Shown piece by piece: positions 229-64,000 of a DNA stretch of 64,000 nt. Where the stretch lies: the NCBI GenBank assembly GCA_905181865.1, contig CAJIZG010000005.1:414705-478704 (forward strand), in the 5' to 3' direction. Every line of letters begins with the position of its first letter. The first letter of the stretch is position 1. Under the pieces are notes generated by a model, which saw nothing but the letters and a program-made list of their open reading frames with translations, searched no databases and was not told the DNA's origin. The stretch comes from Urechidicola croceus (GTDB taxonomy: Bacteria > Bacteroidota > Bacteroidia > Flavobacteriales > Flavobacteriaceae). A program made the translations under genes and the position numbers.

Positions 229-580
229 CTATTTTTTTAGTAAATCCCTACTTTCTGAAAGTAAATCGTTGTCACTTGCGCCAGAAGTTGCAGCTGCTGG
301 AGGAGGCGTTTTTATTTCACTTACTGTTCTAATAACCATAAACATTACAAAAAATACTATTGCAAAATCAATAACGTTGGGGATAAATTCACCCCTATAC
401 TACGGCAAATTCTCCTTCAATTTTCGCGTCAGTATTGGCCATACCCTCATTTATTACTAGTTTTAAATCCTTAAAATTAGTATTGAAAATTCATTCTATA
501 GGTGGAGAAATAATCCCAGCTGTAATATCAGCCAAACCAATCTTCATACCGAAGGCCTTAAACTCTTTTAGTATTTTCAT
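229..580 (-). pseudogene. mscL: Large-conductance mechanosensitive channel pseudogene
   Basis: Manual translation gives the MscL N-terminus MKILKEFKAFGMK and C-terminus NVIDFAIVFFVMFMVI...NDLLSESRDLLKK*. Most of TM1 (GNVVDLAVGVIIG) is missing, there are internal TGA/TAG stops and a frameshift, and it sits downstream of alr as usual in Flavobacteriaceae. Confidence 0.88.
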
Positions 581-624
581 ATTTTAAGATTTAAATTAAT
601 CATAGAACTTTAATATAACTAAAA

Positions 625-1731
625 TCAAGAAATAACAACTCTTCTGACGCGTTGGGATATTGCGGTTAATAGTTCGTATGAAATTGTATCTGATTGTTTC
701 GCGAGAAATTCTACACTTTGTTGATTATCAAAAATGATAACATCGTCTCCTGGTTTACAATTTATATTTGTAATATCTACCATCATCATATCCATACAAA
801 TATTTCCAACAATTGGAGCTCGTTGATTATTGATTTTTACGCAAACTTTTCCATTTCCAAGCCTTCTGCTTAATCCATCAGCATGGCCGATGGCCACAGT
901 AGCCGTTTTCATCTTATTTGAAGCCGAAAAAGATCTGTTATAACCTACACTTTCTCCTGGTTCAATTTCGTGAATCTGTGTGATAACGGTTTTTAAAGAA
1001 ATCACATTTTTTAGATTGTTAGTTTCAGAGACATCATTTGCAAATCCATAGACACCAATGCCAAGGCGGACTAAATCAAAATGGGCTTCTGGATAATTGA
1101 TTATGCCAGAAGTATTACATAAATGGCGGGTAGGAACGAATCCAAATATTAATTTAAATTGAGTTGTAATATTATTGAATTTCTCAATTTGATTTTTTGT
1201 AAATTCGATTTCATTTTTATCTTCAGAAGCAGCTAAATGTGAAAAGAGTGATTGTATAAAAATGGTCTGATTTAGTTCTAATTCTTTATGTAAATAGGGA
1301 AGGTCGTTTATAGAAAATCCGAGTCGATTCAATCCAGTATTAAATTTAAGATGAATCGGGTAATTTTTTAGTTTATTCTCCCTTGTTAATTTAAGAAAAC
1401 TTGAAAAAACATGTTTATTATATAAACTTGGTTCTAGATCATTTACAATAAGTGACTCTAAATTGTCGGCTTGGGGATGTAGAACTAATATTGAAGTTTT
1501 AATACCTGCATTTCTCAACGCAATACCTTCCATCGCATAGGCTACGGCAAAATAAGAGACATGTTGTTCGATGGATTTTGCAATTTCAATAGCGTCACTT
1601 CCATATCCAAAAGCCTTAACAACAACCATGATATCAGTCGTGTCTTTAAGTTTAGATTTAAAATAATTTAAGTTGAATTCTACCGCTTTTAAATCAATTT
1701 CTAGCGTTGTAACATGGTTATTATTAATCAT
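625..1731 (-). CDS. alr: Alanine racemase
   Basis: [11 protein letters not shown]-lysine motif, SHLA, GYADG-like GHADG, GNICMDM. Confidence 0.97.
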
Positions 1732-2344
1732 TAACTTCTTCTAAGTTCGATGGATTTTGCTTAGTATCAGGATGCGTTGCTTGGTAATATGCAGCACGAC
1801 TAAGAGGTTCATACTCTTGAGTTTCTCCTAGCATTACAATGTTTTCATTTGAAGATTTTCTATGGCTAAAATGTGCTAAATTTCCTGTATGAGTGCAGAC
1901 GGCATGTACTTTAGTTACATATTCAGCCGTGGCCATTAAAGCAGGCATAGGACCAAAAGGGTTGCCTTTAAAATCCATATCTAAACCAGCAATTATAACG
2001 CGAACCCCTCTATTTGCCAAATCATTACAAACAGAAACTATTTCATCATCAAAAAATTGCGCTTCATCAATACCAACAACATCTACATCACTTGCCAATA
2101 ATCTGATATTAGCTGAAGAAGGAACAGATGTTGATCTTATTTCATTAGAATCGTGTGAAATTACTTTTTCTTCATCATATCTTACATCAACAGATGGTTT
2201 GAATATTTCTACTTTCTGTTTTGCAAATTGGGCTCTTTTAAGCCTACGTATTAATTCTTCCGTTTTACCAGAGAACATAGAGCCACATATAACTTCAATC
2301 CAGCCAAATTGTTCTGTATGATTTACGGTGTTTTCGAGAAACAT
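1724..2344 (-). CDS. tdk: Thymidine kinase
   Basis: [12 protein letters not shown]-loop, IDEAQFF, GLDMDF; overlaps the alr start. Confidence 0.97.
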
Positions 2345-2399
2345 TTTGTAATTTTCGGACTTGTAAGGGTTAAAATGAATTATTTATTTGGTAACCATA

Positions 2400-2407
2400 C
2401 AAATGTA
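2400..2407 (-). promoter_or_regulatory. Bacteroidota -7 promoter element (TACATTTG) for tdk-alr
   Basis: Matches TAnnTTTG about 55 bp upstream of the tdk ATG. Confidence 0.55.
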
Positions 2408-2448
2408 TTAAAATATATATTATCAATACTTAATAAAACTATCAACTT

Positions 2449-5866: not shown

Positions 5867-6680
5867 TTAATTGAGATAGTAGATGTAGCCTACATGAAGC
5901 CAAATAAGCCAATCAACAAATTTATTGGCAACATCGTCACGGGCATTTAGCCCATCCACCCAGTTTGAAAAGAAGTATTGATGCCTACTTTCAATAAAAA
6001 AATCGGAGTATTCGCTCAATTTATAACGGGTACCTACTCCTAAAGTAGCAGACATGGTAATTCCTCTAGAATCTCTCGCCCTGTCTGGTCCAGCCCATTT
6101 GGGAAACAAGAGGCTGTAATCAGCTTTCCAATCTCCATCTCCATATCTAGTTGAAATAGTTGGGTTATAAAAATTGACCATAGCCCCTAAACTGATGTAG
6201 GGAGACCATTTTAAATTTGGATTTCTTCGAGAGGCAAAATCATTAATATCTACGAAATGGTATTCTATGGCAGAGCCTAAATTCCAGGTGCGAGCTTTAC
6301 CATGCATTGCCCGCAGTTTCTCACCATATAACTCCTTTATTGATTTTTATCCATTTGCCATAATGTTCAAGAGGTGCAGAATGGTACGATAGTTCAGATC
6401 GAATCTTAAAATGTTGCGCCCAATAACTAATTTGATGATTCCATCGGTAGCGATAATTAGTAAATGTTAAATAATGTATAATTCCAAAACCTATACCATA
6501 GTTTTTCGTAATATTAGAATCTGTATTATATCTTGCTCCATAATCCGTAGTGTAATTAGACATACCAAAAGCAGCAGCTATCTCATGACTCCTTTCGCTT
6601 CGAACTTTCTGCGAATGAGAAGGGAGTACAAACAAGGATACAATTAGTAATGGGGTGATTATTTTTATTATATGATTCAA
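5867..6680 (-). pseudogene. Outer-membrane beta-barrel protein (THC0290_0291-like), split by a frameshift
   Basis: Two consecutive ORFs (6321-6680 with signal peptide; 5867-6307 ending in GYIYYLN) join by a frame change near 6330-6345. A single lesion, so a sequencing error is not excluded. Confidence 0.65.
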
Positions 6681-6733
6681 TCGCTTTTTCTATTAACCAA
6701 ATGTAATAAATTCATAGAGGTATGTTTAGAACG

Positions 6734-13216: not shown

Positions 13217-13690
13217 TTAAAACAGTGATTGTTGTTTCAATCTACTTTTAGGTTCTAGCATCCATTTTTTCGCTAAACACCCCATTATATCTGTTAAGGA
13301 AACATCGGAGCCAATAGTTCTATGACATGGTATAACAATCCAAATAGGATTTTTTCCGCTGTATGAGGCAACGGCTCTAATCGCCTTTATATTTTTCAAT
13401 TGATTTGCTTCCTCCAAATATGAACGCGTTTTTCCAAATAGAATATTTTGGCGTCCTTTCCAAACTGATTTTTGGAATTCAGTTCCTTTCGGATTCAGTT
13501 TTAGGTCAAATTCTTTTCTTTGGTTATTAAAAGATTCTTCTAATTGATTTGCACATTCTTTTAAACAATTTGAAACTTACGATTGAATACTGACTGTTGA
13601 ATGTTGAATGGAGTCGAAACGTGTCGAATTATCATTTAGAATTGAAATGGAAGAAACACCATTTTCATTCCCTAATATTTTTTACGGTTC
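13217..13690 (-). pseudogene. ogt: Methylated-DNA--protein-cysteine methyltransferase pseudogene
   Basis: GTEFQKSVW, GKTRSY, AIRAVAS and IPCHR are retained. There is an in-frame TAA at 13577-13579, a frameshift in the GYAGG region and no intact N-terminus. The upstream boundary is approximate. Confidence 0.88.
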
Positions 13691-15009: not shown

Positions 15010-15900
15010 GTATATGTCCATAGGTGAATAGAGTTGAGGTTGCCTTATAAAGCCCAAAGAGACCATCAAGGGGTTATTTGTAAGCGTTTGAAGCAACAGC
15101 GCACTATTGGTTAATTAATAAATGGAGTTATCAGTGTAAAACTTCTAATCCTATGGCATCACTTCGCAGCGGGACAATAATGGAAAGTTCTAAGTTATCT
15201 TTTATGATATAGTATAAGACTATATTTTTGATGAATGTTACTAAAAAAAGGTTTTCAAGTAAGGAGATAGAGCGTCAATTAGGATTAAAATGTTATGAGC
15301 CGTTATGGTTCGTGGTTCCTCAGTTGTGCAAAGCGATGGGGCAAAGTGATGATCGTTATATTTTGGAAGGAATGATAGAAATGAATGAAGGTTATTTATC
15401 ATAGAATCTTCAGAGTAAGTCCATAAAAATTAAAAGGCTAGACGTGGTAGTAAAACCAAGTCAAGTGTTATGATTATCGCAGAAAGTACCATTATTCAAA
15501 ATATTAACACAGGGAGAGTAGATAGGCAATTTAGATATTTTGGAGGGGAGGCACTTCAAGTCCATAAAATAGAAGACACAGATCGAACGCCCCGACAAGC
15601 CATAGAGATTGAAGAATTTATCGTTTTTACAGACTAAAGTACCTCATATGTCAATATTGCTGATTATCTCGATATCCATATTAGTAAAAATAAATAAACA
15701 GACTACTTAAGAAACTTTAATATGGGTACATATTGCTATAAGCAACGCTAAGAGAAGTTTTGTAGGAACGTATCATAAAATAAAAGCGAAATTTCTTCAA
15801 CTTTACCTGAATGAATTCATTTAGAAACTCAATAGAAGGTACTTCTGAGAAAAAATATTCGATAGATTAGTGATAACTTGTATTAGAGGTAATAGACATT
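15010..15900 (+). mobile_element. Decayed IS1595-family (ISXO2-like) transposase remnant, 5'-truncated
   Basis: Fragments across frames: SLRSGTIMESSKLS, FSSKEIERQLGLK, LEGMIEMNEGY, WVHIAISNAKR, LQLYLNEF, NRRY; many stops. Ends approximate. Confidence 0.85.
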
Positions 15901-15924
15901 TAAGGTGTGTACAAAAAAATTCAA

Positions 15925-16050
15925 TTAATACTCAAAATCTTCAGATTCTTTTACTTTAATTCTACGAATAATCAGAAAAATTAAAATCAACAAAGATGTT
16001 AACCAGAACCATCCGTGCATACTAAATACAGCCGTCGTCAAAAAATCCAT
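15925..16050 (-). CDS. Small 41-aa membrane protein downstream of ybjQ
   Basis: MDFLTTAVFSMHGWFWLTSLLILIFLIIRRIKVKESEDFEY*: one hydrophobic helix and a charged tail. ATG lies 1 nt after the ybjQ stop. Below the ORF-track length cutoff. Confidence 0.45.
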   Translation of the reverse strand: MDFLTTAVFSMHGWFWLTSLLILIFLIIRRIKVKESEDFEY

Positions 16051-16051: not shown

Positions 16052-16341
16052 TCATTTCAATTTTACCGCAGTTCCGTGCGCTAATATTTCTGAACAACCT
16101 TGCGTCACTATAGAATGGGTGAGTCTAACATTCACCAAGGCATCTTCGTTTAATCTTTTCGTATCTCTCACCATTCTTTGTATGGCCTACTCCGAAAATT
16201 CAGCCTGTAATTTCGTATATTCTTGAGTCCTACGAAAATATCACGCCCTATATTTCGCGCTCTTACAGCAGTTCCTGGAGCGATTTCAAGGTGTTCTGTA
16301 ATTTATTTATTGGTAATTATTTCCGTAGTTGAGAATAGTAT
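16052..16341 (-). pseudogene. YbjQ/UPF0145 family pseudogene
   Basis: STTE..NK*ITEHL...AVRARNIGRDIFVGLKNI, SE*AIQRM...DALVNVR...QGCSEILAHGTAVKLK*; two nonsense codons and a small deletion. Confidence 0.85.
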
Positions 16342-24997: not shown

Positions 24998-25069
24998 GCG
25001 AAAGTAGCTCAGGGGTAGAGCATCACCTTGCCAAGGTGGGGGTCGCGGGTTCAAATCCCGTCTTTCGCT
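24998..25069 (+). tRNA. tRNA-Gly(GCC)
   Basis: Acceptor GCGAAAG/CTTTCGC, anticodon loop TTGCCAA, T-loop GTTCAAATC. Confidence 0.95.
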
Positions 25070-25118
25070 CAACTCATATATAAAAAATACCAAGTTGATT
25101 GCGCTGCGCAATCAATAT

Positions 25119-25202: not shown

Positions 25203-25205
25203 CTG

Positions 25206-40994: not shown

Positions 40995-41025
40995 AAGAAG
41001 TATACAATACATAAAATATATACAT

Positions 41026-42138: not shown

Positions 42139-42151
42139 TACTAAATTAATT

Positions 42152-43036
42152 ATGTCAGTAATCACAGATTTTTCCGATTTTCATCATCAGGTTTCAACAA
42201 TATTTAAACAGCCTCAGTCCTCAGAAGAATGGGAGCAATATCGATTGACCGATGAGCAAGTAGCACATTTTCATGAATTTGGTTACGTTTCTGGAATTAA
42301 ACTCTTGGAAGAAAATCAAATAAATTTATTGAGAAAGGAACTAGAAGAGTTGAGAGATCCTAAACATCCTGCGCATCATCTTTTTTACGAGTTTCATTCA
42401 AATGAATCCACAAATAGTGATGCTGTTTTGTTTCATTCTTTAGGTCATTGGCGCATAGGTTTAAATTTTCATGACGTCCTTTGGAATCCCGCTTTTGTAA
42501 TGGCCGCTCATCAATTATTGGAAAACAAACCAGTTCGATTCTGGCACGATCAACTATTTTGTAAACCTGCAAAACATGGTGGAGTTGTTGCCTGGCACCA
42601 AGATTACTCTTACTGGACACGTACTATTGCAATGCAACATTTAACCTGTTGGACTGGGTTAGATGATGCTACAACACAAAACGGCTGTTTACATTATATT
42701 CCAAAAAGTCACAAATGGGGGCTTCTAGATGCCCCTAATTTGGCTGGTAATATGGATGAATTGCTGCAGTATCTGAGTCCCGAACAAAAAAAGGAATTCA
42801 ACCCAGTAGCGATTGAATTGAAAAAAGGGTATAGTACTTTTCACCATCCTTTGATGGTTCATGGATCCTATGAAAACAACTCTCAATTAAGAAGAAGAGC
42901 TTTTGTATTAAACGTTTTTGCTGATGGAACCATAAGCAATACAGATCAAGAATTATTACAAGGTGTTCCTATAATTTCAAAAGGAAAAAAAATGGAGGGA
43001 AAATTTTTTCCTTTGCTTTATGATCAACATTCCTAA
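42152..43036 (+). CDS. PhyH-family Fe(II)/2-oxoglutarate dioxygenase
   Basis: HxD in WHQDYSYW, distal His in MVHGS, Arg in RRRAF. Confidence 0.9.
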   Translation: MSVITDFSDFHHQVSTIFKQPQSSEEWEQYRLTDEQVAHFHEFGYVSGIKLLEENQINLLRKELEELRDPKHPAHHLFYEFHSNESTNSDAVLFHSLGHWRIGLNFHDVLWNPAFVMAAHQLLENKPVRFWHDQLFCKPAKHGGVVAWHQDYSYWTRTIAMQHLTCWTGLDDATTQNGCLHYIPKSHKWGLLDAPNLAGNMDELLQYLSPEQKKEFNPVAIELKKGYSTFHHPLMVHGSYENNSQLRRRAFVLNVFADGTISNTDQELLQGVPIISKGKKMEGKFFPLLYDQHS

Positions 43037-43078
43037 TTTATAAAAAAGAAAATAAAAAAATTGTAAACCTCTTAATCA

Positions 43079-44224
43079 ATGAAACTTAATGTAAAAACTT
43101 TTATTAAATGCCTTACCCTCTTACTATTATTCAGTATCAAAATAAATTCACAGGGTACGAAGCAATTAAATAAAGAATTATCGAAAGATATAAAAACGTT
43201 GTTCACCCCTAGTGAAGGAGACTATAATTGTTTTAGAATTCCAGCTGTTGTTGTGGCTAAAGACGGCAGTATATTAGCCTTTGCTGAGGCTAGAAAGAAA
43301 AGTTGCTCGGATACAGGTAATATCGATATAGTGATGAAAAAATCTACTGACAATGGAGCATCATGGAGTAATTTGATAGTTATTTGGAATGATGGACAAA
43401 ATGTATGTGGGAATCCTGCACCTGTAGTAGATGCTAAAACAGGTACAGTTCATTTGCTATTGACTTGGAATAATGGAGACGACCATGAATCTGAAATAAT
43501 TGCTCAAACTAGTGGAGAAACTCGAGAAGTTTATCATTTACAATCTTCAGACAACGGTGACTCTTGGTCACAACCAAAAAATATTACTGCAACTACGAAA
43601 TTAAAAAATTGGACGTGGTATGCAACAGGGCCTGTACATGGAATTCAATTGAAAAAAGGGCCATATAAAGGAAGGCTCATGATTCCTTCGGACCATATAG
43701 AAGCGGGTACAAAAAAATATTATTCTCATGTGATTTATTCTGACGACAACGGAGTATCTTGGGAATTGGGAGGAAGAACTCCACAAGATCAAGTGAATGA
43801 ATGTACACTAGTACAACTAGAAAATGGTGATTTGATGTTGAACATGCGTAATTATGAGCGAAAAGAAGATCAGGCGCGTCAGGTAGCAATAAGCAAAGAT
43901 GGAGGAGTGACATGGGGAAATCAGCATATTGACACCAATTTGCCCGAACCACGTTGTCAAGCAGCCTTACTAGCTGTTATGAGAAAACGGAAGCAAGTAT
44001 TACTTTTTATCAATCCAGCAAACCCAAAGAAAAGAGTCAATATGACACTATCTGTGAGTAGGGATCAAGGAAAAAGTTGGGATGAAAAAATCAGTGTTTT
44101 TAAAGGCCCTTCCGCCTATTCTGATCTTGTTGAATTGAATACCAATCAAATATTTGTGTTTTTTGAAGCAGGAGAAAAGAATGCGTATGAAGGAATTCAT
44201 TATAAATTAATTGATCTGGATTAA
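43079..44224 (+). CDS. Exo-sialidase GH33 (2)
   Basis: Signal peptide, FRIP, five Asp boxes, NMRN, AYSD. Confidence 0.92.
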   Translation: MKLNVKTFIKCLTLLLLFSIKINSQGTKQLNKELSKDIKTLFTPSEGDYNCFRIPAVVVAKDGSILAFAEARKKSCSDTGNIDIVMKKSTDNGASWSNLIVIWNDGQNVCGNPAPVVDAKTGTVHLLLTWNNGDDHESEIIAQTSGETREVYHLQSSDNGDSWSQPKNITATTKLKNWTWYATGPVHGIQLKKGPYKGRLMIPSDHIEAGTKKYYSHVIYSDDNGVSWELGGRTPQDQVNECTLVQLENGDLMLNMRNYERKEDQARQVAISKDGGVTWGNQHIDTNLPEPRCQAALLAVMRKRKQVLLFINPANPKKRVNMTLSVSRDQGKSWDEKISVFKGPSAYSDLVELNTNQIFVFFEAGEKNAYEGIHYKLIDLD

Positions 44225-44280
44225 TCGATGCTTAATATTTTTATTAGAATGATACGACTTAATTACGAAATCCAATCTCT

Positions 44281-46971
44281 ATGAAACAATTAGCGGTTGT
44301 TCTACTTTTATACTTCCTAAGTTTTATTAATTCAAATGCTCAAAAATCTTCTAGTATTTTTGATTGGACTTACGATAAAGAGATTCCGAATGAAGTAGGA
44401 TTGAATGGTTCATTTATGGGAATTCATAATGATGTATTAATCATTGCAGGTGGTGCTAATTTTCCAAACACTCCTGTCTGGGAAGGTGGTGAAAAAGTAT
44501 GGTATTCATCCATTTATGTTTTAGAAAAAAAAGGGACTAAGTCGAAATGGCATCTAGAACCTTCAGTTAGATTAACTAATGCATTGGCATACGGAGTTTC
44601 AATAAGCACTCCACAAGGTGTTTTGTGCATTGGTGGTGATAATGAAACAGAAGTATTCAAAGATGTCTTTTTATTAAAATGGAATAAAAAAAGCAATAAA
44701 ATAGAGATTCAAGACCTACCTCCTATGCCTATAAATTTATACAATATGGGCGCAAGTATTGTTGAAGATATTGTTTTTGTAATTGGAGGACAAGAGTCAA
44801 AAAGTACCGGAGCAACAAATCATTTTTTGTCGTTTAATTTAACTTCAACATTGACAAGTAAAGCATATACATGGGAGCAATTAGAAAATTTTCCTGGAAG
44901 AAGGAGAGTGCAACCGGTAGTTGTTGGTCAAAGTAATGGACATCAAGATTGTTTATATGTATTTAGTGGAATTTCATATGATCCCACTGCAGAAGTAACC
45001 CATACTATGCTAGATGATGTCTATGAATTTAATCCTCATAAAAATCGATGGACACAAAAGGAATCTGTTCCCAACAATGGAACACCGGGAGTAATAGGAG
45101 GTTATATTGCGGCTGCTCCAGCCATAAAAATGGGAGATTCTCACATTGTGATTTTTGGAGGAGCCGGAGGTGAACAGCAAAACCTTTCGCGACGAATTCC
45201 GATTTGGAATGCCATTAAAAAGTTAAAAAGTGAAATTAATCAAAATGAAGAAACGATTGCGAAAATTGATTCATTAAATATGATTGATAATGAATTGTTG
45301 AAAACCACTCGATTCAGTAAAATCGTTTGGTCATATCATTCAATCACAGATACTTGGAGTAAAAAAGGGGTGCTACCAAGTGACGCTCAGGTAGTAACTC
45401 AAGCATTGAATTGGAATAATAACATAGTAATATCTGGTGGAGAAATACATCCAGGTGTAAGAACTCCAAAAATTACCATTGCCACACAAAAACCCTATGA
45501 AGCCAGTTTTGGCTGGATAAATTATATAACTCTTATTACATATTTAATGTTAATGGTTTGGATGGGATGGTATTTCTCACGAAAAAATAAAACAACAGAT
45601 GATTATTTTCTTGCGGGAGGTAGAATTCCATGGTGGGCTGCTGGGTTAAGTATTTATGCTACTATGTTAAGTGCCATTACGTATTTGTCACAACCGGCAT
45701 TAGCATATTCTTTTGACTGGCAGGCATATTTGGGGTATTTTGCCATTTTGATTGTAGTCCCTGTTGTAATAGCTTTTTATCTGCCTTTTTTCAGGAAATT
45801 AAATATTACCACGGCATACGAATATTTGGAAAAAAGATTCAACTTAACTATTAGAATGTTTGGAAGTATATCTTTCATCTTATTTCAATTAGTAAGAATG
45901 GGAATTGTAGTATATCTTCCTGCCTTAGCCCTTTCAACAGTTGTCGGAATTGATATTTATTTAGCAATCAGTGTTATGGGGGTTTTAGCAATTCTTTATA
46001 CCTATATGGGTGGAATGGAAGCCGTGATCTGGACAGATGTGGTACAAGTAATTGTATTGATGGCAGGTTTAATCATTGGATTGATTTATATCGGCATTGA
46101 GATTGGAGATGTAGGCTATATTTTTGATACGGCATTGGCCGATGGTAAACTTCAAATGGTAGATTTACGATGTAGTTTTATAGAAGTAGTAACATGGTCC
46201 TTATTTATTGGCACATTTGCTTTGACATTAATTCCATACACCACAGACCAGTCAGTAGTGCAGAGATACATGACGACATCGAGTGAAAAAGAAGCACGAA
46301 AAAGTATATGGCTAACTGGAATTATTACTCTCCCAGCGGGTCTTCTAATATTTGCAATGGGTACATTTTTGTATGTCTATTTTAAAGAACATCCCGAATT
46401 TTTGAGTGTCGGTATGCAGAACGACAGTGTATTTCCTTTATTTATTACAAATCATTTACCTCCTGGGGTTGCAGGTTTGGTTATAGCTGGAATTTTTTCT
46501 GCTTCCATGTCGAGTTTAGATAGCAGTATGCACAGTATTTCTACCGTTGTGACCGTAGATTTTTATAAGAGATTTACGAAAGTCTATTCTGATACTAATG
46601 GTCTTAAAATTGCAAAATGGACTACAGTTATTGTAGGAGTTTTCGGAACCCTGATTGCATGTTTAATGGCCGCTTTCCCTGTAAAATCGTTATTCTTTTT
46701 GTTTCAAGAAGTAATTGGTCTTCTGGGAAGTGCAATGGCAGGAATATTTATTCTCGGAATTTTTGTTAAGAAAGCCAATTGGAAGGGAACACTAATAGGA
46801 GCTGTATTTAGTATTATAGTTTTAGTGTTTGTTAAATATAACACCCCTATTAACTTTTATATCTATCCTTTAATTGCAATTCCTATATGTGTCATTGGAG
46901 GATATCTTTTCAGTCTAATTTTAAAAGTTGAAGAAAAAGACATATCCGATTTGGTCTATTCAAAAAAATAA
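44281..46971 (+). CDS. Kelch-repeat sialic acid mutarotase (NanM-like) fused to a Na+/solute symporter (SiaT-like)
   Basis: Signal peptide; about 410 aa kelch propeller (IAGGANFP, LCIGG, VIGG, ISGGEIHPGVRTP); then SSS domain DYFLAGG..WWAAGLSIYAT.LSAITY, YTYMGGMEAVIWTD, DQSVVQRY. Confidence 0.88.
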   Translation: MKQLAVVLLLYFLSFINSNAQKSSSIFDWTYDKEIPNEVGLNGSFMGIHNDVLIIAGGANFPNTPVWEGGEKVWYSSIYVLEKKGTKSKWHLEPSVRLTNALAYGVSISTPQGVLCIGGDNETEVFKDVFLLKWNKKSNKIEIQDLPPMPINLYNMGASIVEDIVFVIGGQESKSTGATNHFLSFNLTSTLTSKAYTWEQLENFPGRRRVQPVVVGQSNGHQDCLYVFSGISYDPTAEVTHTMLDDVYEFNPHKNRWTQKESVPNNGTPGVIGGYIAAAPAIKMGDSHIVIFGGAGGEQQNLSRRIPIWNAIKKLKSEINQNEETIAKIDSLNMIDNELLKTTRFSKIVWSYHSITDTWSKKGVLPSDAQVVTQALNWNNNIVISGGEIHPGVRTPKITIATQKPYEASFGWINYITLITYLMLMVWMGWYFSRKNKTTDDYFLAGGRIPWWAAGLSIYATMLSAITYLSQPALAYSFDWQAYLGYFAILIVVPVVIAFYLPFFRKLNITTAYEYLEKRFNLTIRMFGSISFILFQLVRMGIVVYLPALALSTVVGIDIYLAISVMGVLAILYTYMGGMEAVIWTDVVQVIVLMAGLIIGLIYIGIEIGDVGYIFDTALADGKLQMVDLRCSFIEVVTWSLFIGTFALTLIPYTTDQSVVQRYMTTSSEKEARKSIWLTGIITLPAGLLIFAMGTFLYVYFKEHPEFLSVGMQNDSVFPLFITNHLPPGVAGLVIAGIFSASMSSLDSSMHSISTVVTVDFYKRFTKVYSDTNGLKIAKWTTVIVGVFGTLIACLMAAFPVKSLFFLFQEVIGLLGSAMAGIFILGIFVKKANWKGTLIGAVFSIIVLVFVKYNTPINFYIYPLIAIPICVIGGYLFSLILKVEEKDISDLVYSKK

Positions 46972-47069: not shown

Positions 47070-47929
47070 TTAACTTTTTTTATATTTTCTCGTTCTCTTA
47101 ATTTCAATTTCTGTTATGGTTCCATTTGCCGCTGTTCATGTAGCAATAGCATCACATGTACCGTCGCCATAATTTAACGTTGACAATTCACCACTTTTAG
47201 AAATCTCTTTAACACCAAACGCAATATACCCGCATCCCTCTGGTTTCACAAATGGTAAAATAATCTCCATTTCAAAAATACTTCCATCTGCTTTTATCAG
47301 TTCATGAGACCCAGTAATGGTTCATTCATTGTCCTCATAAGAATCGGTATCACTACCTGCGGTTACTTCAAACAAACGCGAGCCAGTTTTAGTAATTGTC
47401 TCTTCTTCAGTTTCAATGATTAAATTAGTTTCACCACTCATTTGTGGATTCCCATTCTCATTTTCATCAAGGTGTTCATATTGTCTAGTACATTAATAAC
47501 ATATCCATTTACAGAGAAATCAGTAAACAAAATGGAACGGCTTTTTGAAGATTCTAAGTTTTCTATAACAATTATAATCGTACCAGAAACTTCATTTTCA
47601 CGTTTATCAATTCAATCTTCAGCAAAAGAAATTGTTATCGTTTTAGTATTATCAACCTCCTCGACAGAAAAATTAACACAGGACGAGAAAAAATTTGCAC
47701 GATCAAATATATGACCTGTTCCCTTTCCAGAAAGGGCATCAAAGTCTAAATCTTTAGCGTATAGGGCGTATTCATCTACCACACTTTCAACTTCTTCAAT
47801 AGAAGTTTCTAGAGAAATATATTCTGAAATGGCAAAATTGTCATCCCCTATCTCCAAATTATCTTTTTCACAAGACACAAAAATTATTGCCAATACAATA
47901 CTTACTTTTAAAAAATTATTCATTTTCAT
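47070..47929 (-). pseudogene. Lipoprotein pseudogene
   Basis: Lipobox FVSC; TGA stops at 47612-47614, 47322-47324 and 47136-47138 plus a frameshift near 47490; coherent C-terminus (C.YIAFG.K, NYGDGTCD). Confidence 0.8.
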
Positions 47930-48077
47930 ATTATAGTTATTAAATTATTATACATTTATGAATTAGGGTGTTTTTAATTCGTACGAACCCCTTTCCATTT
48001 TATATAAAACAATTCATTTCTTAAAACTCCTACTCTATGGTTGCAATTATTTTTTTATTGACATAATAAATTTTTAA

Positions 48078-49235
48078 ATGAATGATTTAAAAATAGAAAA
48101 GGTCGAGCTTTTTAAAGTCCCTCCGAGATGGTTGTTTCTAAAAATAACCACCAAATGTGGTATTGTTGGATGGGGAGAACCTATAGTTGAAGGAAAAGCA
48201 GATACTGTTGCGGCGTGCATAAAAGAATTAGAACAATATATAATGGGTCGAAACGCCAATAATATCGAAGATATTTGGCAAATTTTATATAGAGGTGGCT
48301 TTTATAGAGGAGGCCCTATCTTGATGAGTGCAATATCTGGTATTGATCAAGCCCTATGGGATATAAAAGGTAAATATTTAAATGTCCCTGTTCATGAATT
48401 ATTAGGTGGAGCTGTTCGTCAAAAAATGAAAATGTACTGCTGGATTGGAGGAGATAATCCCGAAGTTGTTTTAGATCAGGCTACTAAAAAAATAAATGCT
48501 GGTTTTAATGCCGTAAAGATGAATGCAACGGGTGGAATGGAATGGGTTTCTTCCATAAAAGACATTAAGAATGTTGCAAACAATATCAAACTCTTACGAG
48601 AAGAATTCGGATATGAGTTAGACATAGGATTAGACTTTCATGGAAGGGTACACAAACCAATGGTTAAGAGACTTATAGACGAATTGGCTCCTTATGAACC
48701 TATGTTTATTGAAGAGCCCGTTTTAAGTGAAAATAATGATGCGCTACGTCATATTTACCAATACACCAATATTCCAATTGCAACGGGAGAACGTATGTTT
48801 TCAAGATGGGATTTTAAGGAGATTTTACACCAAGGGGTTGTTGATATTATTCAACCAGATCTTAGTCACGCCGGAGGTATCTCTGAAGTTAGACGCATTG
48901 CCACAATGGCTGAAGCCTATGATATTGCCATTGCTCCTCATTGTCCCTTAGGGCCAATCTCATTGGCTTCTGCACTTCACTTAGATTTTGTATCCTCTAA
49001 TGCTATCATTCAAGAGAGTAGTTTGGGAATACATTATAACAGAGGATATGACATCTTAGATTATGTCTTAAACCCAGAAGTTTTTAATGTAGAGGATGGC
49101 TCTATAAACTTACTTACAAAACCTGGTTTGGGAATTGAAATTAATGAAGAAAAACTAAAAGAAGGTCAAAAAATTGGACACAATTGGGCCAATCCCATTT
49201 GGAGAAATCCCGACGGAAATTTTGCAGAATGGTAA
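48078..49235 (+). CDS. dgoD: D-galactonate dehydratase (enolase superfamily)
   Basis: VPPRWLFLKI, GWGEP, FYRGG, DFHGR, FIEEP, ATGER, PHCPLGP, WRNPDG..AEW end. Confidence 0.92.
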   Translation: MNDLKIEKVELFKVPPRWLFLKITTKCGIVGWGEPIVEGKADTVAACIKELEQYIMGRNANNIEDIWQILYRGGFYRGGPILMSAISGIDQALWDIKGKYLNVPVHELLGGAVRQKMKMYCWIGGDNPEVVLDQATKKINAGFNAVKMNATGGMEWVSSIKDIKNVANNIKLLREEFGYELDIGLDFHGRVHKPMVKRLIDELAPYEPMFIEEPVLSENNDALRHIYQYTNIPIATGERMFSRWDFKEILHQGVVDIIQPDLSHAGGISEVRRIATMAEAYDIAIAPHCPLGPISLASALHLDFVSSNAIIQESSLGIHYNRGYDILDYVLNPEVFNVEDGSINLLTKPGLGIEINEEKLKEGQKIGHNWANPIWRNPDGNFAEW

Positions 49236-49277
49236 CCCAATTTAATACTTAGAAACGAACCAAAAACAACCATCACT

Positions 49278-50600
49278 ATGATCTTTATAATCGCGCTTAT
49301 TTTTTCTTTAGCCTTTTTAGTTGTAACCATAATTAAGTTTAAAATACATCCCTTTTTCAGTCTTTTATTAACCGCTATTATTTATGGTTTTTTTACAGGA
49401 ATGGATATAGAGTTGATCATAAATTCTATCAACTCTGGATTTGGAGATATTCTTGGAAAGATTGGATTAATTATTCTCTTTGGAGTTACTATAGGAACCA
49501 TACTAGAAAAATCTGGTGGAGCCCTTGTAATTGCAACGCGCATTCTAAATGTGATTGGGGAAAGATTTATTCATTTAGCCATGATGCTTACTGGTTATTT
49601 TTTATCCATTCCCATATTTGCAGATAGTGCACTATTAATAATGAACCCATTGAATAAAGTGCTTTCTAAAAAGGCAGGAGTCTCTTATGCCGGAACAACT
49701 GCGGCCTTAGCCATGGGGCTTACAGCGTCACATGTAATGGTTCCGCCAACACCTGGGCCAATTGCTGCGGCAGGTATTTTAGGAGCGAACCTAGGTGATG
49801 TAATACTTTGGGGGTTACTCGTTAGTACATTGTCATTGATTCCTTGCTACTTTTATGCTACCAAATTGGCATCTAAAGTTACGATTCCCATTATTATTGA
49901 ACCAATTGCAAATGTAAAACGTCAACCCAAACTAAATATTTCTTTACTCTGTATCGTTGTTCCATTAATTTTAATCCTTCTTAAATCTGTGCTAGAATAT
50001 CCTGAATTGGACTTTAATCCATCTCTATTTAAAACAGTTTTATCTTTTATAGGTACTCCCGTAATTTCATTATTAATAGGGGTTTTACTTTCTTTATTAT
50101 TACCAGAGAAATTAGATGAAAAAATAATTTCTTCAAAAGGTTGGATGGGTGAATCACTTTTAGTAGCAGCCCCAATAATTTTAATTACAGGAGCAGGCGG
50201 TATCTTCGGAAAAATGCTTCAAAACTCAGGAATTTCAGACTTAATAACTACCGGATTTACAGGACTTGAAATTGGATTATTTTTGCCATTTCTATTAGCT
50301 TCCTGCCTTAAATCTACTCAGGGCTCGTCTACGGTAGCACTTGTAACAACTGCTTCAATTGTTGCTCCAATGATTTCTGTTTTGGGATTGAATGATCCTT
50401 TTCTTCTTACAATGACCGTTTTATCTATCGGTGCAGGTTCTTCCGTAGTTACACATGTAAATGATAGTTTTTTCTGGGTGTTAATACAACTAACAGGAAT
50501 GAATGTTAAACAAGGATATCAAATTCTAACGGCGGGAACTTTTATTTTTGGAGTAGCAGCGATGTTTATAATTTTTATTATTACACAAATCATGATGTAG
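49278..50600 (+). CDS. GntP family gluconate/aldonate permease
   Basis: GTILEKSGGA, VPPTPGPIAAA, KSTQGSSTVA, HVNDSFFWV. Confidence 0.92.
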   Translation: MIFIIALIFSLAFLVVTIIKFKIHPFFSLLLTAIIYGFFTGMDIELIINSINSGFGDILGKIGLIILFGVTIGTILEKSGGALVIATRILNVIGERFIHLAMMLTGYFLSIPIFADSALLIMNPLNKVLSKKAGVSYAGTTAALAMGLTASHVMVPPTPGPIAAAGILGANLGDVILWGLLVSTLSLIPCYFYATKLASKVTIPIIIEPIANVKRQPKLNISLLCIVVPLILILLKSVLEYPELDFNPSLFKTVLSFIGTPVISLLIGVLLSLLLPEKLDEKIISSKGWMGESLLVAAPIILITGAGGIFGKMLQNSGISDLITTGFTGLEIGLFLPFLLASCLKSTQGSSTVALVTTASIVAPMISVLGLNDPFLLTMTVLSIGAGSSVVTHVNDSFFWVLIQLTGMNVKQGYQILTAGTFIFGVAAMFIIFIITQIMM

Positions 50601-50804
50601 ACTTTCACCTTTGATATCTCCTAATTTATCTTGAAAAATAAAAGTAATTTATTCGAGTTTGTTGTTATAGTTTCTTGACCTCGCTTTCTGCCTTGCAAGT
50701 TTCCTTTAAAACCATAGTCTGTATAAAATGCTGTTAACACGTATATTCTAGACTTTAATTCTTCTGTTAATTTCTTTATTCTAAATGAGCCTTTAGTTCC
50801 TATT

Positions 50805-51806
50805 AACCTGAGTTCGATTCATAAAAACTTAACTGATTAGACGCTACTTTTTGATATTTAATGGAAGGTTTTTTAGGCAGAAAACTATATGCTAAAAGGC
50901 CTGCAACTATATTTGACAAGAAGTTAGTAAAACTTCTATGTCTAGAATGTTCAATTTGACAACTATTTTTAAGTTCATCATGTACCGTTTCAATAATAGA
51001 ACGTTTTCTAAGTAATATTTTATCGCTCATAGTCATTAAAGAATTCTTCGTATTGTTTTTAATATGAGTAATCAAATGTAATCCGTGAGCAAAAAGAAGT
51101 TGCATCAAATCCTTACCAATATATCCTTTGTCAGCATATAATTTTCCGTATATTTTATCTAAAAAAATTTTCTTTTTTAGTGGTGTTCTGTCGTCAATAT
51201 TGGCTTGAGTAATGGTAAAATTCAGGATTTCTCCTTTGTCATTTATAATACTGTGAAGTTTGAATCCTTGAAACCACCCCATCGTAGATTTTCTAGTAGT
51301 AGCAATGCCTTTACATACTTTATTGTTTCTAATTCGTTTGGGTTTACAAACTCTAATAGGTGTAGAATCTACAAAAGAAATACCTGTAGAATCACCCAAA
51401 CGGCAGGTTTTTAAAAACAAAGTCATCGCCATTAAATTTTGACCAACGAGTTCTGTAAATCTGTTGTAAGAAACCGTTGAAGGAAAATCACCTTTTATCT
51501 ATTTTTGAACATAAAAAACATAGAAATGCTTGAAGGTTCTAAAACCACTTAACTGAAATAGAATACAGCGTATAATCACCTCACTTTTACTCATTATAGA
51601 CGGTCGTTTTGATGGATTTCCTAAAAGAGATGCATCAACGACTTTATCATATTCTTTGCAGAATTCGTCAACAATACAAAATATTTCTGTAATTTTAGGA
51701 TAGATTAACATAGATGAAGTTTTAGATTGATCTTCAGATCTTTAATTTACTTAAAACCTATCTTTTATCTAAAAAATGGAGCCTAAATATTAATCGAACT
51801 CAGGTT
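50805..51806 (-). mobile_element. IS982-family element with inactivated transposase
   Basis: Perfect 15-bp terminal IR AACCTGAGTTCGATT (50805-50819 / 51792-51806); transposase 51711-50803 with one in-frame TAG (51499-51501); FVDST, GFKLH, ADKGY, KRSIIETV. Confidence 0.92.
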
Positions 51807-52227
51807 CATACAGCGGCTTCTCATCAGTTTCTGACATAGCCTTTATTGGAAGTACCGTTGCTCTAATTCCGGCATTAACAACATTTTTTATAAAAGTTCT
51901 TCTTTTTTGGTGAGCTATAAGTTTATCATTTTAAAACTCTTAGAATCGAGTAGTATCTTTAAAAGGTATTCCAATGTACACAGAAATAAGAAACCTCTGA
52001 TATTAAGTAATTTAAAACAATAAAACGTGATAGATTAGTTTAACTAAAAAAAGAGTATGAAAATTCATAAAAGAGAATAAACATCTAAATTGAATTCAAC
52101 ATGCCTTCTTCTTCCTATTGAATATCACTGATGTGATATTTGCAAACACTCAATAATTTTAGAGCATGCATTTCGAATAATCTGCTACTTATCTCGATTA
52201 TTCGTAATTGCTTTTTTATATATCCGC

Positions 52228-52874
52228 TTAATGTCCATTACCTGTAATATTTGCTATCACTAGTCTATCGAATATTCTTTCTCCGGAGTATCTTCTATTG
52301 AGTTTCTAAATGAATTCATTCAGGTAAAGTTGAAGGAATTTCGCTTTTATTTTATGATACGTTCCTGAAAAACTTCTTTTAGCGTTGCTTATAGCAATAT
52401 GTACGCATATTAAAATCTCGTTAGTAGTCTATTTATTTGATTTTTCACTAATAAGGATATCGAGATAATCAGCGATACTGACATATAAGGTACTTTGGTC
52501 TGTAAAAACGATCATTTCGTTGTTCCATCGCTTTACGTAACTTATGAACCATTGCCCCTCAGGCTCATAACGTTTTAACCCTAATTGACGTTGTATTTCC
52601 TTGCTAGAAAACCTTTTTCTTAATAGCACTCATCAAAAATATAGTCTTATACCATATCATAAAGATAACTTAGAACTTTCCATTATTGTCTCGCTACGAA
52701 GTGATTTCCTAGAATTACAGGCTTTATACTAATAGCCGCATTTATTAACGAACCAGTAGTGTGCTGTTCCTTGACAACGTTTACAAATAACTCCTTCATG
52801 GTCTCTTGGACTTTAAAATGCAATCTATAACTCTTTTCATCCGTAAAGTGAATTCCAAAACTAAATATATTCAT
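52228..52874 (-). mobile_element. Decayed IS1595-family transposase remnant with internal deletion
   Basis: MNIFSFGIHF start, FSSKEIQRQLGLKRYEP, IVFTDQST, AISNAKR, LQLYLNEF; the middle region (EGMIEMDEG) is missing. Confidence 0.85.
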
Positions 52875-52997
52875 TACTAACCTTTTTAAAATCAATTAGA
52901 TATAATACATTCTAATTGACTTAGGACTCTATACGGATACACAAAAATTTTCTTAATTATAGTTAAGTTTCTCATTCTAAGTGAGATTGTTTAATTA

Positions 52998-57146: not shown

Positions 57147-57217
57147 TGCAAAGATAGTTCTTTTAAATAAGATCTTTAATTATTTCTCATTTTAGGATTC
57201 CATTTTAAAATTAAATT

Positions 57218-57820
57218 ATGCTAGATAATTTTTTTAAAATAACTGAGAATAAATTCAATCTTAAAACGGAAATTATCGCCGGTGTTACCACTTTTATGAC
57301 CATGGTATACATTCTTGCAGTAAACCCAAGTATTCTGGGAGAAGCAGGTATGGGCAAAGATGTTGTGTTTATAGCCATCGCGCTGTCTCCAGTTGTAATA
57401 ACTTTGGTCATGGCTTTGGTGGCTAAATTGCCTTTTTGACCTGGCACCGGGGATGGGGTTAAATGCCTTCTTTGTATTTACCGTTTTTCTCGGAATGGAT
57501 ATACTTGGCAATTTTCTTTTTCTTTATTTTTCGCAACACTATTTATGATTATTCTGCCTGAAGTAAAGGCTCCAGCATTATTTGTTGTTGGCCTGTTTAT
57601 GATTTCACCTATTTTAAAAATTGATTTGAATGATTTTACAGAAGCTATTCCTATATTTTTTACTCTAATTATGATGTCTCTGACCTATAGTATCGCAGAC
57701 AGAATTGTCTTTGGTATGTTGCCGTATGTATTACTAAAACTGTTTATAAGCAGATTCTCTGAAATAAAACTAGTGATGTATGTTATAGTACTATTCTTCT
57801 TACTCAAAATTTACATATAA
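57218..57820 (+). pseudogene. NCS2/AzgA-family purine permease pseudogene with large internal deletion
   Basis: AGVTTF.TM.YI.AVNP start, LAPGMGLNAFF in a shifted frame, then a direct jump to C-terminal APAL..VG.FM...EAIP; about 200 codons in total versus roughly 430 expected. Confidence 0.88.
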
Positions 57821-57827: not shown

Positions 57828-58811
57828 TCAAGTATTAAGTGCAACAGGTTGGTTAAAATTAATTAAAAACACTTCATTAGGAGTTTTATACCCTAATAAC
57901 TTTCTTGGTCTATTATTTAGTTTTGTGATTATCATGTTTATCTCATTATTGTTAATTAAATTAAAGTCTGTTTTTTTAGGTAAATATTGTCTTATTAGTT
58001 TGTTATTGTATTCATTGAGTCCTATTTGCCAAGGGGAATAGGGATCAGCAAAGTAAAAATCAACTTCGAGTTTTTGGGCAATTTCTTGATGTTTAGTAAA
58101 TTCCTTTCCATTATCAGAAGTTATTGTTTTTACGAGTTCCTTAAAAGGGGCAAGCAAATTAATCATCTGTTTTCGTATAGACTCAGCTTTAGTTGCATCG
58201 GTTTTAACCATTAATTCAAATTGACTTTTACGTTCTGTTATTGTTAAAATCGCGGTTTTATGGTTTTTCCCAATAATCGTATCTACTTCCCAATCTCCAA
58301 AACGCTCTTTTGTATCTACTATTTTTGGTCTATGATCTATCATTGTTCGATTGGGTATTCGTCCTCTTTGATGTTTTCGATTTAACCGTTTTCTACGCCA
58401 TCTGCGAGCCGTTCTGAGATGTAGATACAAGTAACCTCCTTCAGTTTGGTTTGCATAAATATATTGATAGATTCTTTCTGTGCTTACCATGGGTATTCCA
58501 TCTAAATCACAGCGGCCTTTAATTTGTTCTGGAGACCATTGATTTTGAGTTAGTTTTTTATCAATATATTGTTTCATATTCTGGTCAAAAACAGAATGCT
58601 TATAACTCTCTCTTTTACGCTCCTTACTTAGTGTCGAAGCATAATTAGCATTATAAATACGCTTTTTACTATTTCTTTTTAACTCTCTACAAATTGTACT
58701 TTTATGCACTCCTAGCTCTATGGCTATTCGTATAATTGTAAAATTTGCTTTTAGATACGCCTCTATTTGATATCTTTGAGAGTCGATTAATTGTTGGTAA
58801 TTCATCGGCAA
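57828..58811 (-). CDS. IS30-family DDE transposase
   Basis: HTH (LGVHKSTICREL), WSPEQI, GDWEVDTIIG, TSDNGKEF, NEYNNKLIR, LNNRPRK.LGYKTP. Confidence 0.96.
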   Translation of the reverse strand: MPMNYQQLIDSQRYQIEAYLKANFTIIRIAIELGVHKSTICRELKRNSKKRIYNANYASTLSKERKRESYKHSVFDQNMKQYIDKKLTQNQWSPEQIKGRCDLDGIPMVSTERIYQYIYANQTEGGYLYLHLRTARRWRRKRLNRKHQRGRIPNRTMIDHRPKIVDTKERFGDWEVDTIIGKNHKTAILTITERKSQFELMVKTDATKAESIRKQMINLLAPFKELVKTITSDNGKEFTKHQEIAQKLEVDFYFADPYSPWQIGLNEYNNKLIRQYLPKKTDFNLINNNEINMIITKLNNRPRKLLGYKTPNEVFLINFNQPVALNT

Positions 58812-61321: not shown

Positions 61322-61345
61322 TCAATTATTTCGTATATTATATAG

Positions 61346-61375
61346 AGCGCTTTTGGATTCCAAAAGTGCTTTTTT
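61346..61375 (+). terminator. Terminator after the aminotransferase
   Basis: AGCGCTTTTGG/CCAAAAGTGCT stem plus T-tract. Confidence 0.8.
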
Positions 61376-61662
61376 ATTTCGTTTTTCTCAAACTCAAGAT
61401 GTAATTTAATCGAATCCGTAGTTTATTATGTGCTGAAATCACCTTGTAATTTATCGTGGTATAATCTGATTCATATGTCAATCTTAGGTTTATTAACGTT
61501 CCAATTCAAAACATAAATAAGTGTTATTCTTATCAAATTTCGGATCACTCAATCTCGAAGTAAATCGTATTCTAACTTCCTCTAAAGTAGTGCCTTTTAT
61601 TAACATTTTAAAAACATCAATATCAGAGCTGAATTCTTATATTTGAAAAAAACCTTTTTTAG

Positions 61663-63786
61663 ATGTCTAGAATATTAATTACCCTTATTATAACTATACT
61701 TATCATTTCAAGTTGTAAAAGTGAAACTAAAGATGCGAATATGGAAGAGCATAAGTATACGAATGATTTAATTCATGAAACGAGTCCGTATTTGTTGCAA
61801 CACGCTCATAACCCTGTAGATTGGAAACCATGGAAGCAAGAAACATTAGATTTAGCAAAAAAAGAGAATAAATTAATTATTATTTCTGTGGGATATGCTG
61901 CTTGTCACTGGTGTCATGTTATGGAGCACGAGAGTTTTGAAAATGATTCTGTGGCAAAGATTATGAATGACAATTTTATCAGTATAAAAGTAGATAGAGA
62001 AGAACGCCCAGATGTGGATCAGGTATATATGAATGCTGTACAATTGATGACGGGAACTGGCGGTTGGCCGTTGAACTGTATTACGTTACCCGATGGTAGG
62101 CCTATTTTTGGAGGAACTTATTTTGAAAAAGAAAAATGGATAAGTTTGCTGAATCAACTTTCAACGCTTTATAAAGAACAACCTGAAAAAGCGATAGAAT
62201 ATGCAGAAAAACTTACAGAGGGTATTCAGAATTCCGAGTTAATTACCTTGAATTCTACCGAGGCAGTTTTTACTACGGTAGAAATTAAAAAGAATGTAGA
62301 CGCTTGGACTGAAATCATGGATTTTGAATTAGGAGGAACGACTGCTTCACAAAAATTTCCGACACCTACTAATTATCATTTTTTATTGCGTTACGGCTTT
62401 CAATCTAAGAATGAAAGAATAAATGAATACACAAATACCACGCTGACAAAAATGGCTTATGGCGGACTCTATGATCAAATTGGAGGAGGTTTTTCTAGGT
62501 ATTCGGTGGATAAAAAATGGCATGTCCCACATTTCGAAAAAATGTTATATGATAATGGGCAATTGGTTAGTTTGTATTCTGATGCCTATTTGATAACCAA
62601 AAATGAGTTGTACCAAAAGACCGTTGAAGAAACACTCACTTTTGTGGAACGTGAATTGATGAGTGAAGAAGGAGGTTTTTATTCTTCGTTAGATGCCGAT
62701 AGTTTGAATGCAGCGGGTGAACTAGAAGAAGGAGCTTATTATGTTTGGACAAAGGCTGAATTAGAAAAAGTTATAGGAAGCGATTTCGAAATATTTCAAG
62801 AGTATTATAATATCAATAAATATGGGTTTTGGGAACATGACAATTATGTGTTGATTAGAAATAAATCCGATAAAGAAATTGCATCGAGGTATGATTTAAC
62901 TGTTGAAAAATTACAAACTAAAGTTGTTTCTTGGAAAGCGAATCTATTAAAAGAACGAGATATAAGGGAACGCCCTCGTTTGGATGATAAAATATTAACG
63001 TCTTTAAATGCATTAATGTTAAAAGGGTATGCAGATGCTTATCGTGTCTTTGAAAATCCTCATTACTTAGAAATAGCCTTAAGGAATGCTCACTTTTTGG
63101 TTGCAAAACTACAACGTGAGGATGGTGGGTTGAATCACAATTATAAAAACGGAAAGAGTAATATCAACGGATATTTAGAAGATTATTCGGCGCTTATTGA
63201 CGCTTTTATAAGTTTGTACGAAGTAACGCTTGATGAGCAATGGTTAATGACCTCAAGGCGACTTGCGGAGTATACTTTTGATCATTTTTACGACACTGAG
63301 AGTGGTATGTTCTTCTTTACCTCTGATGAAGATGATGAATTAATTGCTAGAAAAATGGATGTTTATGATAAAGAAATTCCATCGTCCAATTCCATTATGG
63401 CACGCAGTTTGGCTAAGCTGAGTCATTATTTTTCGAATAATTATTACTTGAAAACAAGTAAACAAATGCTGAATAATGTAAAAGAAAGCATGACGTCATA
63501 TCCTGCAGGTTATTCTAATTGGTTGCAATTAATGAGTGATTTTTCTATCGATTACTATGAAATAGCAGTATCTGGAGAGGATGCGATGTCTAAATTAAAA
63601 AAAATAAATCAAACCTATATACCTAATAAATTAATTGCGGGATCAACAAAGGATAGTTCAATACCATTGATGGAAGGACGTTTTAATGACGATATTACGT
63701 TTATTTATATATGTGTAGATGGAGCCTGTAAATTACCAGAAGAGGAGGTTTCAAAGGCGATAGAGCAACTAAAAGTTCATTATTGA
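61663..63786 (+). CDS. Thioredoxin-domain YyaL/SSP411-family lipoprotein
   Basis: ISSC lipobox, [39 protein letters not shown]. Confidence 0.93.
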
Positions 63787-63802
63787 ATAATACCTTAAGA
63801 TA

Positions 63803-64000
63803 ATGACAAAAATCATAACTGCGCTCATTATATCGGTCACCTTACTACATTTTTATTTTATGATTTTAGAAATGTTTCTATAGACAAAACCTCGTGGTTT
63901 GAAAACTTTTGGACTTAAGAAATATTTTGCAGAACAATCAAAAGTATTTGCTGCGAATTAAGTATTGTATAGCGGGTTTTTAGCGGTAGCATTAAGGTAA
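63803..64000 (+). pseudogene. DUF1304 family membrane protein pseudogene (runs to the window edge)
   Basis: LH.Y..ILEMFL*TKP.G.KTFG...FAAN*VLYSGFLA; TAG at 63881-63883 (usual Trp) and TAA (usual Gln). Confidence 0.8.

Follow-up and report, generated by a model that had tools for sequence, protein, structure and literature searches.

We describe a 64,000-nucleotide stretch of the Urechidicola croceus assembly GCA_905181865.1 (contig CAJIZG010000005.1, positions 414,705 to 478,704; G000:C5:414705-478704), hereafter the window, where G000 denotes the window's own assembly. Pfam profiles run on its roughly 55 larger open reading frames (ORFs) identify housekeeping genes that are ordinary for Flavobacteriaceae, namely alr, tdk, glyS, tatD, nqrA-F, a DEAD helicase, gidB, and a type IX secretion system (T9SS) plug gene, and tRNA-Gly and tRNA-Leu lie at 24998-25203. 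The window also holds eight pseudogenes, three dead insertion sequences (IS), one apparently intact IS30-family element, and an intact 17.5-kb block with sialic-acid (nan) genes (Table 1). Our data suggest that moderate, ongoing gene decay affects the whole of G000 and that the window is typical of it.

The G000 assembly comprises 3,420,398 bp in six contigs (C1 and so on) at 34.0% GC, with no N, and CheckM gives 97.4% completeness and 1.2% contamination. Its genus, which is probably Urechidicola, contains 20 species genomes of 1.9-3.4 Mb. Genome-wide tests drew on a sample of four congeners, G003, G010, G013, and G031, from which 2.0 Mb were fetched in all. G010 is a single contig of 3,426,122 bp at 29.9% GC, and its rRNA region with the 16S gene is 94.3% identical to that of G000 over 1.8 kb; G031 has 3.1 Mb at 33.1% GC.

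Broken genes and insertion sequences in the window

An original prediction, made from the letters of the window, had listed eight pseudogenes and three dead IS, with nonsense substitutions and large deletions among the lesions. We read the lesions in six frames across ORF-poor stretches and assigned identities by Pfam on joined fragments, which located every one of the listed pseudogenes and all three IS relics, two of the IS1595 family and one of the IS982 family. Both kinds of lesion are present, as in the TGG to TAG change of the DUF1304 gene and the internal deletion of the NCS2 permease gene. Eight pseudogenes among about 55 genes is a high load, given that broken orthologues make up only 0-0.6% in congeners.

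Table 1. Decayed genes, insertion sequences, and the intact block in the window (window coordinates; aa, amino acids)
Feature	Position	Strand	Details
mscL pseudogene	232-583	-	N-terminal deletion; 4-5 stops (3 TGA and 1 TAG inside); one frameshift; MscL profile 33-123 only
Outer-membrane beta-barrel pseudogene	5870-6689	-	One frameshift, giving ORFs of 119 aa and 146 aa
ogt (O6-methylguanine-DNA methyltransferase) pseudogene	13220-13681	-	In-frame TAA at 13577-13579; DNA_binding_1 and Methyltransf_1N
IS1595-family relic	15025-15960	+	Transposase in at least 4 frames; DDE_Tnp_IS1595
ybjQ pseudogene	16055-16302	-	Frameshift; Pfam YbjQ_1
Cytochrome c/FG-GAP lipoprotein pseudogene	28303-29414	-	At least 6 stops (1 TGA, 1 TAG, 4 TAA) and frameshifts; 175-aa C-terminal ORF left
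Intact 17.5-kb block	29475-46971		Full-length ORFs; near-complete Pfam coverage
Lipoprotein pseudogene	47139-47944	-	TGA at 47322-47324; TGA at 47612-47614; frameshift
IS982-family relic	50797-51810	-	209-aa DDE fragment and broken N-terminus
Second IS1595-family relic	52214-52943	-	Internal deletion; DDE_Tnp_IS1595; also in strain L328
NCS2 (AzgA-like purine permease) remnant	57215-57817	+	About 200 of about 430 aa; frameshift and large internal deletion; Xan_ur_permease 3-60 of 389
IS30-family element	57828-58811	-	Apparently intact, 327 aa; HTH_38 and rve; single copy; abuts NCS2 remnant
DUF1304 pseudogene	63803-64000	+	TGG to TAG at 63881-63883; TAA at 63959-63961; profile 3-44 of 110

Intact counterparts document what has been lost. 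mscL is intact in 17 congeners, where it encodes 137-145 aa free of stops, and ogt is unbroken next to tatD in 55 Flavobacteriaceae loci. The beta-barrel counterpart in G010 is an intact 280-aa gene; the window's fragments match its residues 2-116 in one frame and 124-280 in another, and the same split occurs in metagenome contigs L321-L323. The cytochrome c/FG-GAP pseudogene has a single homologue in the genus, which in G010 is uninterrupted over 511 aa. A search of the G000 genome found no intact paralogue of mscL, ogt, ybjQ, NCS2, or DUF1304. An alternative genetic code is ruled out because TAA, TAG, and TGA all occur in the lesions, alongside frameshifts and deletions.

The IS30-family element is an addition to the predicted list. 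It is missing in L328, a strain at 98% identity, and in L325 it is split into ORFs of 171 aa and 127 aa, which points to a recent insertion that in some strains has already begun to decay. L328 carries the same NCS2 remnant.

One rival account is that the lesions are artificial, produced by a poor or chimeric assembly (for example by long-read indel errors or by the consensus of a metagenome-assembled genome), and the division of G000 into six contigs would be compatible with this. We therefore checked them against independent public assemblies (ENA, Logan, JGI) found by exact-protein look-up. Contigs from ERZ1699353, ERZ27292933, ERZ23499122, ERZ27292790, ERZ21835295, ERZ28774451, ERZ4576237, and several Logan runs are 99.4-100% identical to the window over 5-21 kb, and metagenome contigs from at least eight samples carry the G000 lesions, gap-free across the pseudogenes. 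The recurrence of the same lesions at 99.9-100% identity in assemblies from all three sources means that they are not assembly errors. Many moreover consist of a base change that creates TAA, TAG, or TGA, of a large deletion, or of several hits in one gene, and essential genes (glyS, the nqr operon) are clean. An artefact, the refutation that the original prediction had allowed for, is thus not borne out, and we give it almost no weight.

Comparison of strains shows lesions of different age. In the lipoprotein pseudogene, the TGA at 47322-47324 is common to G000 and two strains at 99.5% identity, L325 and L327; the TGA at 47612-47614 and the frameshift belong to the G000 lineage only, and L325 and L327 have another extra stop of their own. 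In L328, the N-terminal 160 residues of this lipoprotein run in one frame over both G000-only sites, on a contig that stops before the shared TGA. The DUF1304 gene shares its TAA at 63959-63961 with L328, and its TGG to TAG change is found only in the G000 lineage. L325 differs by 27 substitutions in 3.4 kb of relics versus 38 in about 12 kb of genes, a density about 2.5 times as high. The relics in the window are real pseudogenes, decaying neutrally, in a population that is nearly clonal across many metagenomes.

Three further observations concern the same stretch. At the site of the IS982 relic, L328 has amine-oxidase and cytochrome c genes (L328 12408-14602), an arrangement that suggests an IS-mediated deletion in G000. 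In L326 (16586-20639), a sulfatase, PhoD, and a second sulfatase replace the dgoD-like and gntP genes of the window; both differences between strains fall within window positions 48078-51810. Straight after the two tRNA genes, about 740 bp (25204-25945) contain no ORF of at least 60 aa and showed no homology; this segment may be the relic of an integrated element.

Decay across the genome

We estimated coding fraction with one crude caller of greedy, non-overlapping ORFs, applied to G000 and to the congener sample. Coding fraction is 0.874 in G000, versus 0.938 in G003, 0.946 in G013, 0.928 in G031, and 0.890 in G010; the share of ORF-less stretches of at least 300 bp is 11.2% in G000, 2.0% in G003, 2.3% in G013, 4.1% in G031, and 7.6% in G010. 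The window itself has a coding fraction of 0.859 and an ORF-less share of 11.6%.

These values bear on whether decay is local, with the window as a decaying patch in a genome that is otherwise normal. The IS relics and a break in synteny with G010 after position 14981 would fit such a patch. Among 196 64-kb windows of G000, however, the window ranks at the 24th percentile by coding fraction and its ORF-less share lies close to the genome mean, which makes it typical of G000 and leads us to reject it as a local hotspot. Broken orthologues, described below, are likewise spread over contigs C1-C5. Purely local decay is accordingly most improbable.

Broken orthologues were scored by reciprocal tblastn, with a gene counted as broken where internal stops are flanked by good alignment or where collinear high-scoring segment pairs lie in two frames. 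In the tests against the four congeners, the broken G000 orthologues number 9 of 324, 7 of 203, 8 of 189, and 4 of 179, or 28/895 (about 3%). The corresponding counts of broken congener orthologues are 2 of 318, 1 of 210, 0 of 189, and 0 of 175, or 3/892 (about 0.3%) after removal of three ORFs inside rRNA. The excess in G000 is about tenfold (Fisher's exact p = 4e-6). Its 28 events represent 24 unique loci, most with several lesions. Counterparts of the broken genes include 6-phosphogluconate dehydrogenase (gnd), 3-hydroxyacyl-CoA dehydrogenase, rhodanese, a TonB-dependent receptor, acyl-CoA dehydrogenase, UDG, peptidase U32, SRAP, threonine dehydratase (ilvA), and a LuxR-type response regulator; with ogt, UDG, and SRAP, G000 has lost three DNA-repair genes. 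The test detects just one or two of the eight pseudogenes in the window, so the true broken fraction in G000 is probably several-fold above 3%. Both genome-wide checks that the original prediction had proposed are thus positive: as in early-stage reductive genomes, the pseudogene fraction is raised and coding density is lowered.

Mobile elements tell a similar story. Repeats of at least 200 bp make up 6.7% of G000. A 1.48-kb IS3-type element with a 353-aa HTH-rve transposase occurs in 17 full-length copies, whose identity of 99.7-100% indicates recent activity. Its copies include C1:267619-269119 and C5:623976-625456; the latter lies at a contig end, so the assembly breaks at a copy at least once. 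The other IS families contribute about 40 copies, mostly dead, among them an IS982-like family with 12 copies, at most one of them intact, and an IS1595-like family with three copies, all dead. IS have therefore proliferated in G000, as expected of an early-stage reductive genome, to an extent that is modest next to classic cases. A separate 18-kb region, G000:C3:336717-354938, is internally repetitive with up to 71 self-matches and is possibly a giant repeat or adhesin gene.

The sialic-acid island and the question of a host

The intact block at 29475-46971 encodes an esterase, a Zn-dependent alcohol dehydrogenase (ADH), a GFO/IDH/MocA oxidoreductase, NanA, a GntR/FCD regulator, an AGE epimerase, a creatininase-family hydrolase, a sialidase, an FAD-oxidase/4Fe-4S protein, a class-V aminotransferase, a PhyH dioxygenase, a second sialidase, and a NanM-SSF fusion. 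All of its ORFs are full length, in agreement with the predicted integrity of an esterase/ADH-to-nan cluster, including the core of the nan locus (DHDPS-family lyase, GlcNAc_2-epim, the NANM and SSF fusion, and two BNR_2 proteins). Sialic-acid utilisation loci of Bacteroidetes, for example in Bacteroides and Tannerella, combine a nanA lyase, an AGE-type epimerase, a sialidase, and a sialic-acid transporter. The G000 locus resembles them in its lyase, AGE epimerase, GntR/FCD regulator, two BNR sialidases, and NanM with an SSF transporter. It differs in lacking a SusC/D pair, YhcH, a sialate O-acetylesterase, and GH20, of which the locus at 31591-46971 holds neither genes nor relics, and in its additional FAD-oxidase/4Fe-4S, class-V aminotransferase, PhyH, and creatininase-family genes. 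The nan locus contains no kinase, NagA, or NagB, genes for which the rest of the genome was not searched.

Within the genus, the NanM-SSF fusion occurs in G000 and G031 only. G031 has nanA, the regulator, the AGE epimerase, the creatininase-family gene, both sialidases, PhyH, and the fusion at 64-83% amino acid identity, in a fuller polysaccharide utilization locus (PUL; L294-L296, G031:C34:36001-96000) that also includes SusC/D, YhcH (DUF386), a GDSL/SASA sialate O-acetylesterase, and GH20. The FAD-oxidase/4Fe-4S and class-V aminotransferase genes, which lie between the first sialidase and PhyH, are present in G000 and absent from the G031 version. Elsewhere in G000, C3:773443-793617 carries a BNR_2 sialidase with its best match in G007, a paralogue of the DHDPS-family lyase, and a paralogue of the SSF transporter, and is a possible second locus of sialic-acid type.

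The original prediction had further held that erosion spares the sialic-acid machinery, and as a distinguishing signal this fails. Most genes of G000 are intact, gap-free runs of at least 17.5 kb number 28 and cover 18% of the genome, with the block as one of them, and most of the island is shared with G031, which is not eroded. Across 12 metagenome contigs the block is 99.96-100% identical, and samples differ by 0-5 substitutions per 12-20 kb in its nan genes. In other regions, 17 synonymous and 21 nonsynonymous changes are seen at 0.4% divergence, and 68 and 34 at 2%, numbers too small for a dN/dS test; at the amino acid identity of the G031 comparison, synonymous sites would be saturated. 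The island appears to characterise the G000/G031 sub-lineage and not to have been specially spared; it is probably intact, as most of the genome is, because the bacterium uses it.

From the erosion and the island together, the original prediction had drawn the picture of an early-stage reductive symbiont or commensal of a marine animal, perhaps an echinoderm, that depends on host sialoglycans, with host restriction as the cause of decay and selection keeping the nan island. Its first half is sound, in that erosion is real, genome-wide, ongoing, and accompanied by IS activity. In its pseudogene load, IS burst, and lost DNA-repair genes, G000 is like bacteria recently restricted to a host, and its population is near-clonal across samples. 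G000 has three BNR sialidases, the maximum in the genus, versus 0-2 in congeners, and the FAD-oxidase and aminotransferase genes of the island may fit use of an N-glycolyl group. One member of the probable genus was isolated from the gut of a spoon worm and another is associated with mussel gills (PMC10199937), and G010, a probable gut isolate, is intermediate in decay, as seen in its ORF-less share.

Several features expected of a reductive symbiont are, however, absent. At 3.42 Mb, G000 ranks as the largest of the 20 genus genomes, and its GC content of 34.0%, versus 29.9-33.1%, is the highest among those sampled; neither genome shrinkage nor a drop in GC is seen, which for a very early stage is not decisive. 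Traits needed only outside a host have not been lost. An intact proteorhodopsin gene outside the window (G000:C3:1072162-1072899), present in just 2 of the 20 genus genomes, has a DTE motif, the green-type Met-105, and the retinal lysine, and G000 retains seven intact SusD genes and an intact T9SS plug gene, mscL being lost. Most of the nan island recurs in the non-eroded G031, a genome that fits U. vernalis, a species obtained from seawater microcosms (PMC11165706), and the intact run in G000 is not statistically unusual. Decay equal to that of G000 is found in Psychroflexus torquis without an animal host (PMC3914696). On balance, we regard restriction to an animal host, with dependence on its sialoglycans, as an unlikely account of G000, one that keeps perhaps the weight of a serious minority view.

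A more specific form of the host hypothesis would place a near-clonal, widely sampled Urechidicola-like lineage at the onset of restriction to a marine animal bearing N-glycolylneuraminic acid (Neu5Gc). Such a lineage would be gaining a glycolyl-salvage module and shedding SusCD-type PUL genes and hundreds more, with proteorhodopsin kept for an off-host phase; we consider this scenario speculative and improbable. As a separate observation, the 6 kb just downstream of the proteorhodopsin gene (C3:1066100-1072090) contain only ORFs of 63-122 aa and look heavily decayed.

Proposed weakening of selection and comparable genomes

As the most likely mechanism behind the decay of G000 we propose, with a probability of roughly 0.7, that selection weakened or lost efficiency after the population passed through a recent bottleneck or its niche narrowed, together with IS activity. 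On this account, G000 has lost dispensable genes (transport, regulation, DNA repair, accessory metabolism) to nonsense mutations, frameshifts, deletions, and IS insertions, and the relics then decay neutrally, with strains gaining differing secondary lesions. One IS3-type element is active at present; the older IS982 and IS1595 families are dead.

Several points weigh against this proposal. A few of the 24 broken loci are doubtful, namely an IS110 transposase, an LRR repeat protein, and a possible antisense ORF, and the pseudogene fraction was estimated by a home-made combination of ORF calling and tblastn, applied to the 2.0 Mb of congener sequence, not by full annotation. Support for the lesions rests on assembled contigs and not on raw reads, and the near-identity of samples could partly reflect the sampling of one site or time series. 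The bottleneck or niche narrowing as cause is inferred, not demonstrated.

The luminous symbionts of ceratioid anglerfishes are recently host-restricted bacteria with IS bursts (PMC6020299). Aliivibrio salmonicida, Aeromonas salmonicida, and Yersinia pestis are further examples. G000 resembles bacteria of this kind in its near-clonal population, the expansion of one or a few IS families, a pseudogene load between a few per cent and about 10%, a genome size near that of free-living relatives, and the loss of transporter, regulator, and repair genes. It differs from them in having no documented host, IS in tens and not hundreds, no drop in GC, and retained light-harvesting and glycan-foraging genes.

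Among Flavobacteriaceae, the sea-ice specialist P. torquis ATCC 700755 carries 379 pseudogenes (9.6%) versus 1.6% in its sister species, at a coding density of 81% versus 86% (PMC3914696). It resembles G000 in being marine, with about 34% GC, proteorhodopsin, about eight times its sister's pseudogenes, and many IS that are largely dead, and nonsense mutations and indels likewise cut its pseudogenes short or into segments (PMC3914696). The genome of P. torquis is enlarged and its decay sits mostly in islands gained by horizontal transfer, whereas in G000 decay also strikes conserved genes in syntenic core flanks (mscL, ogt, gnd, ilvA). Such decay in free-living marine flavobacteria means that the decay of G000 does not show life on an animal host; decay alone is silent on the niche, be it an animal surface, particles, algae, or another.

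Our analysis thus advises caution in annotation-free inference, since pseudogene density by itself does not identify a host-associated lifestyle. The near-identical metagenome contigs, together with at least two slightly diverged strains, allow the lesions to be ordered in time. If confirmed by full annotation, G000 would be the second clear case, after P. torquis, of ongoing decay driven by pseudogenes and IS in a marine flavobacterium.

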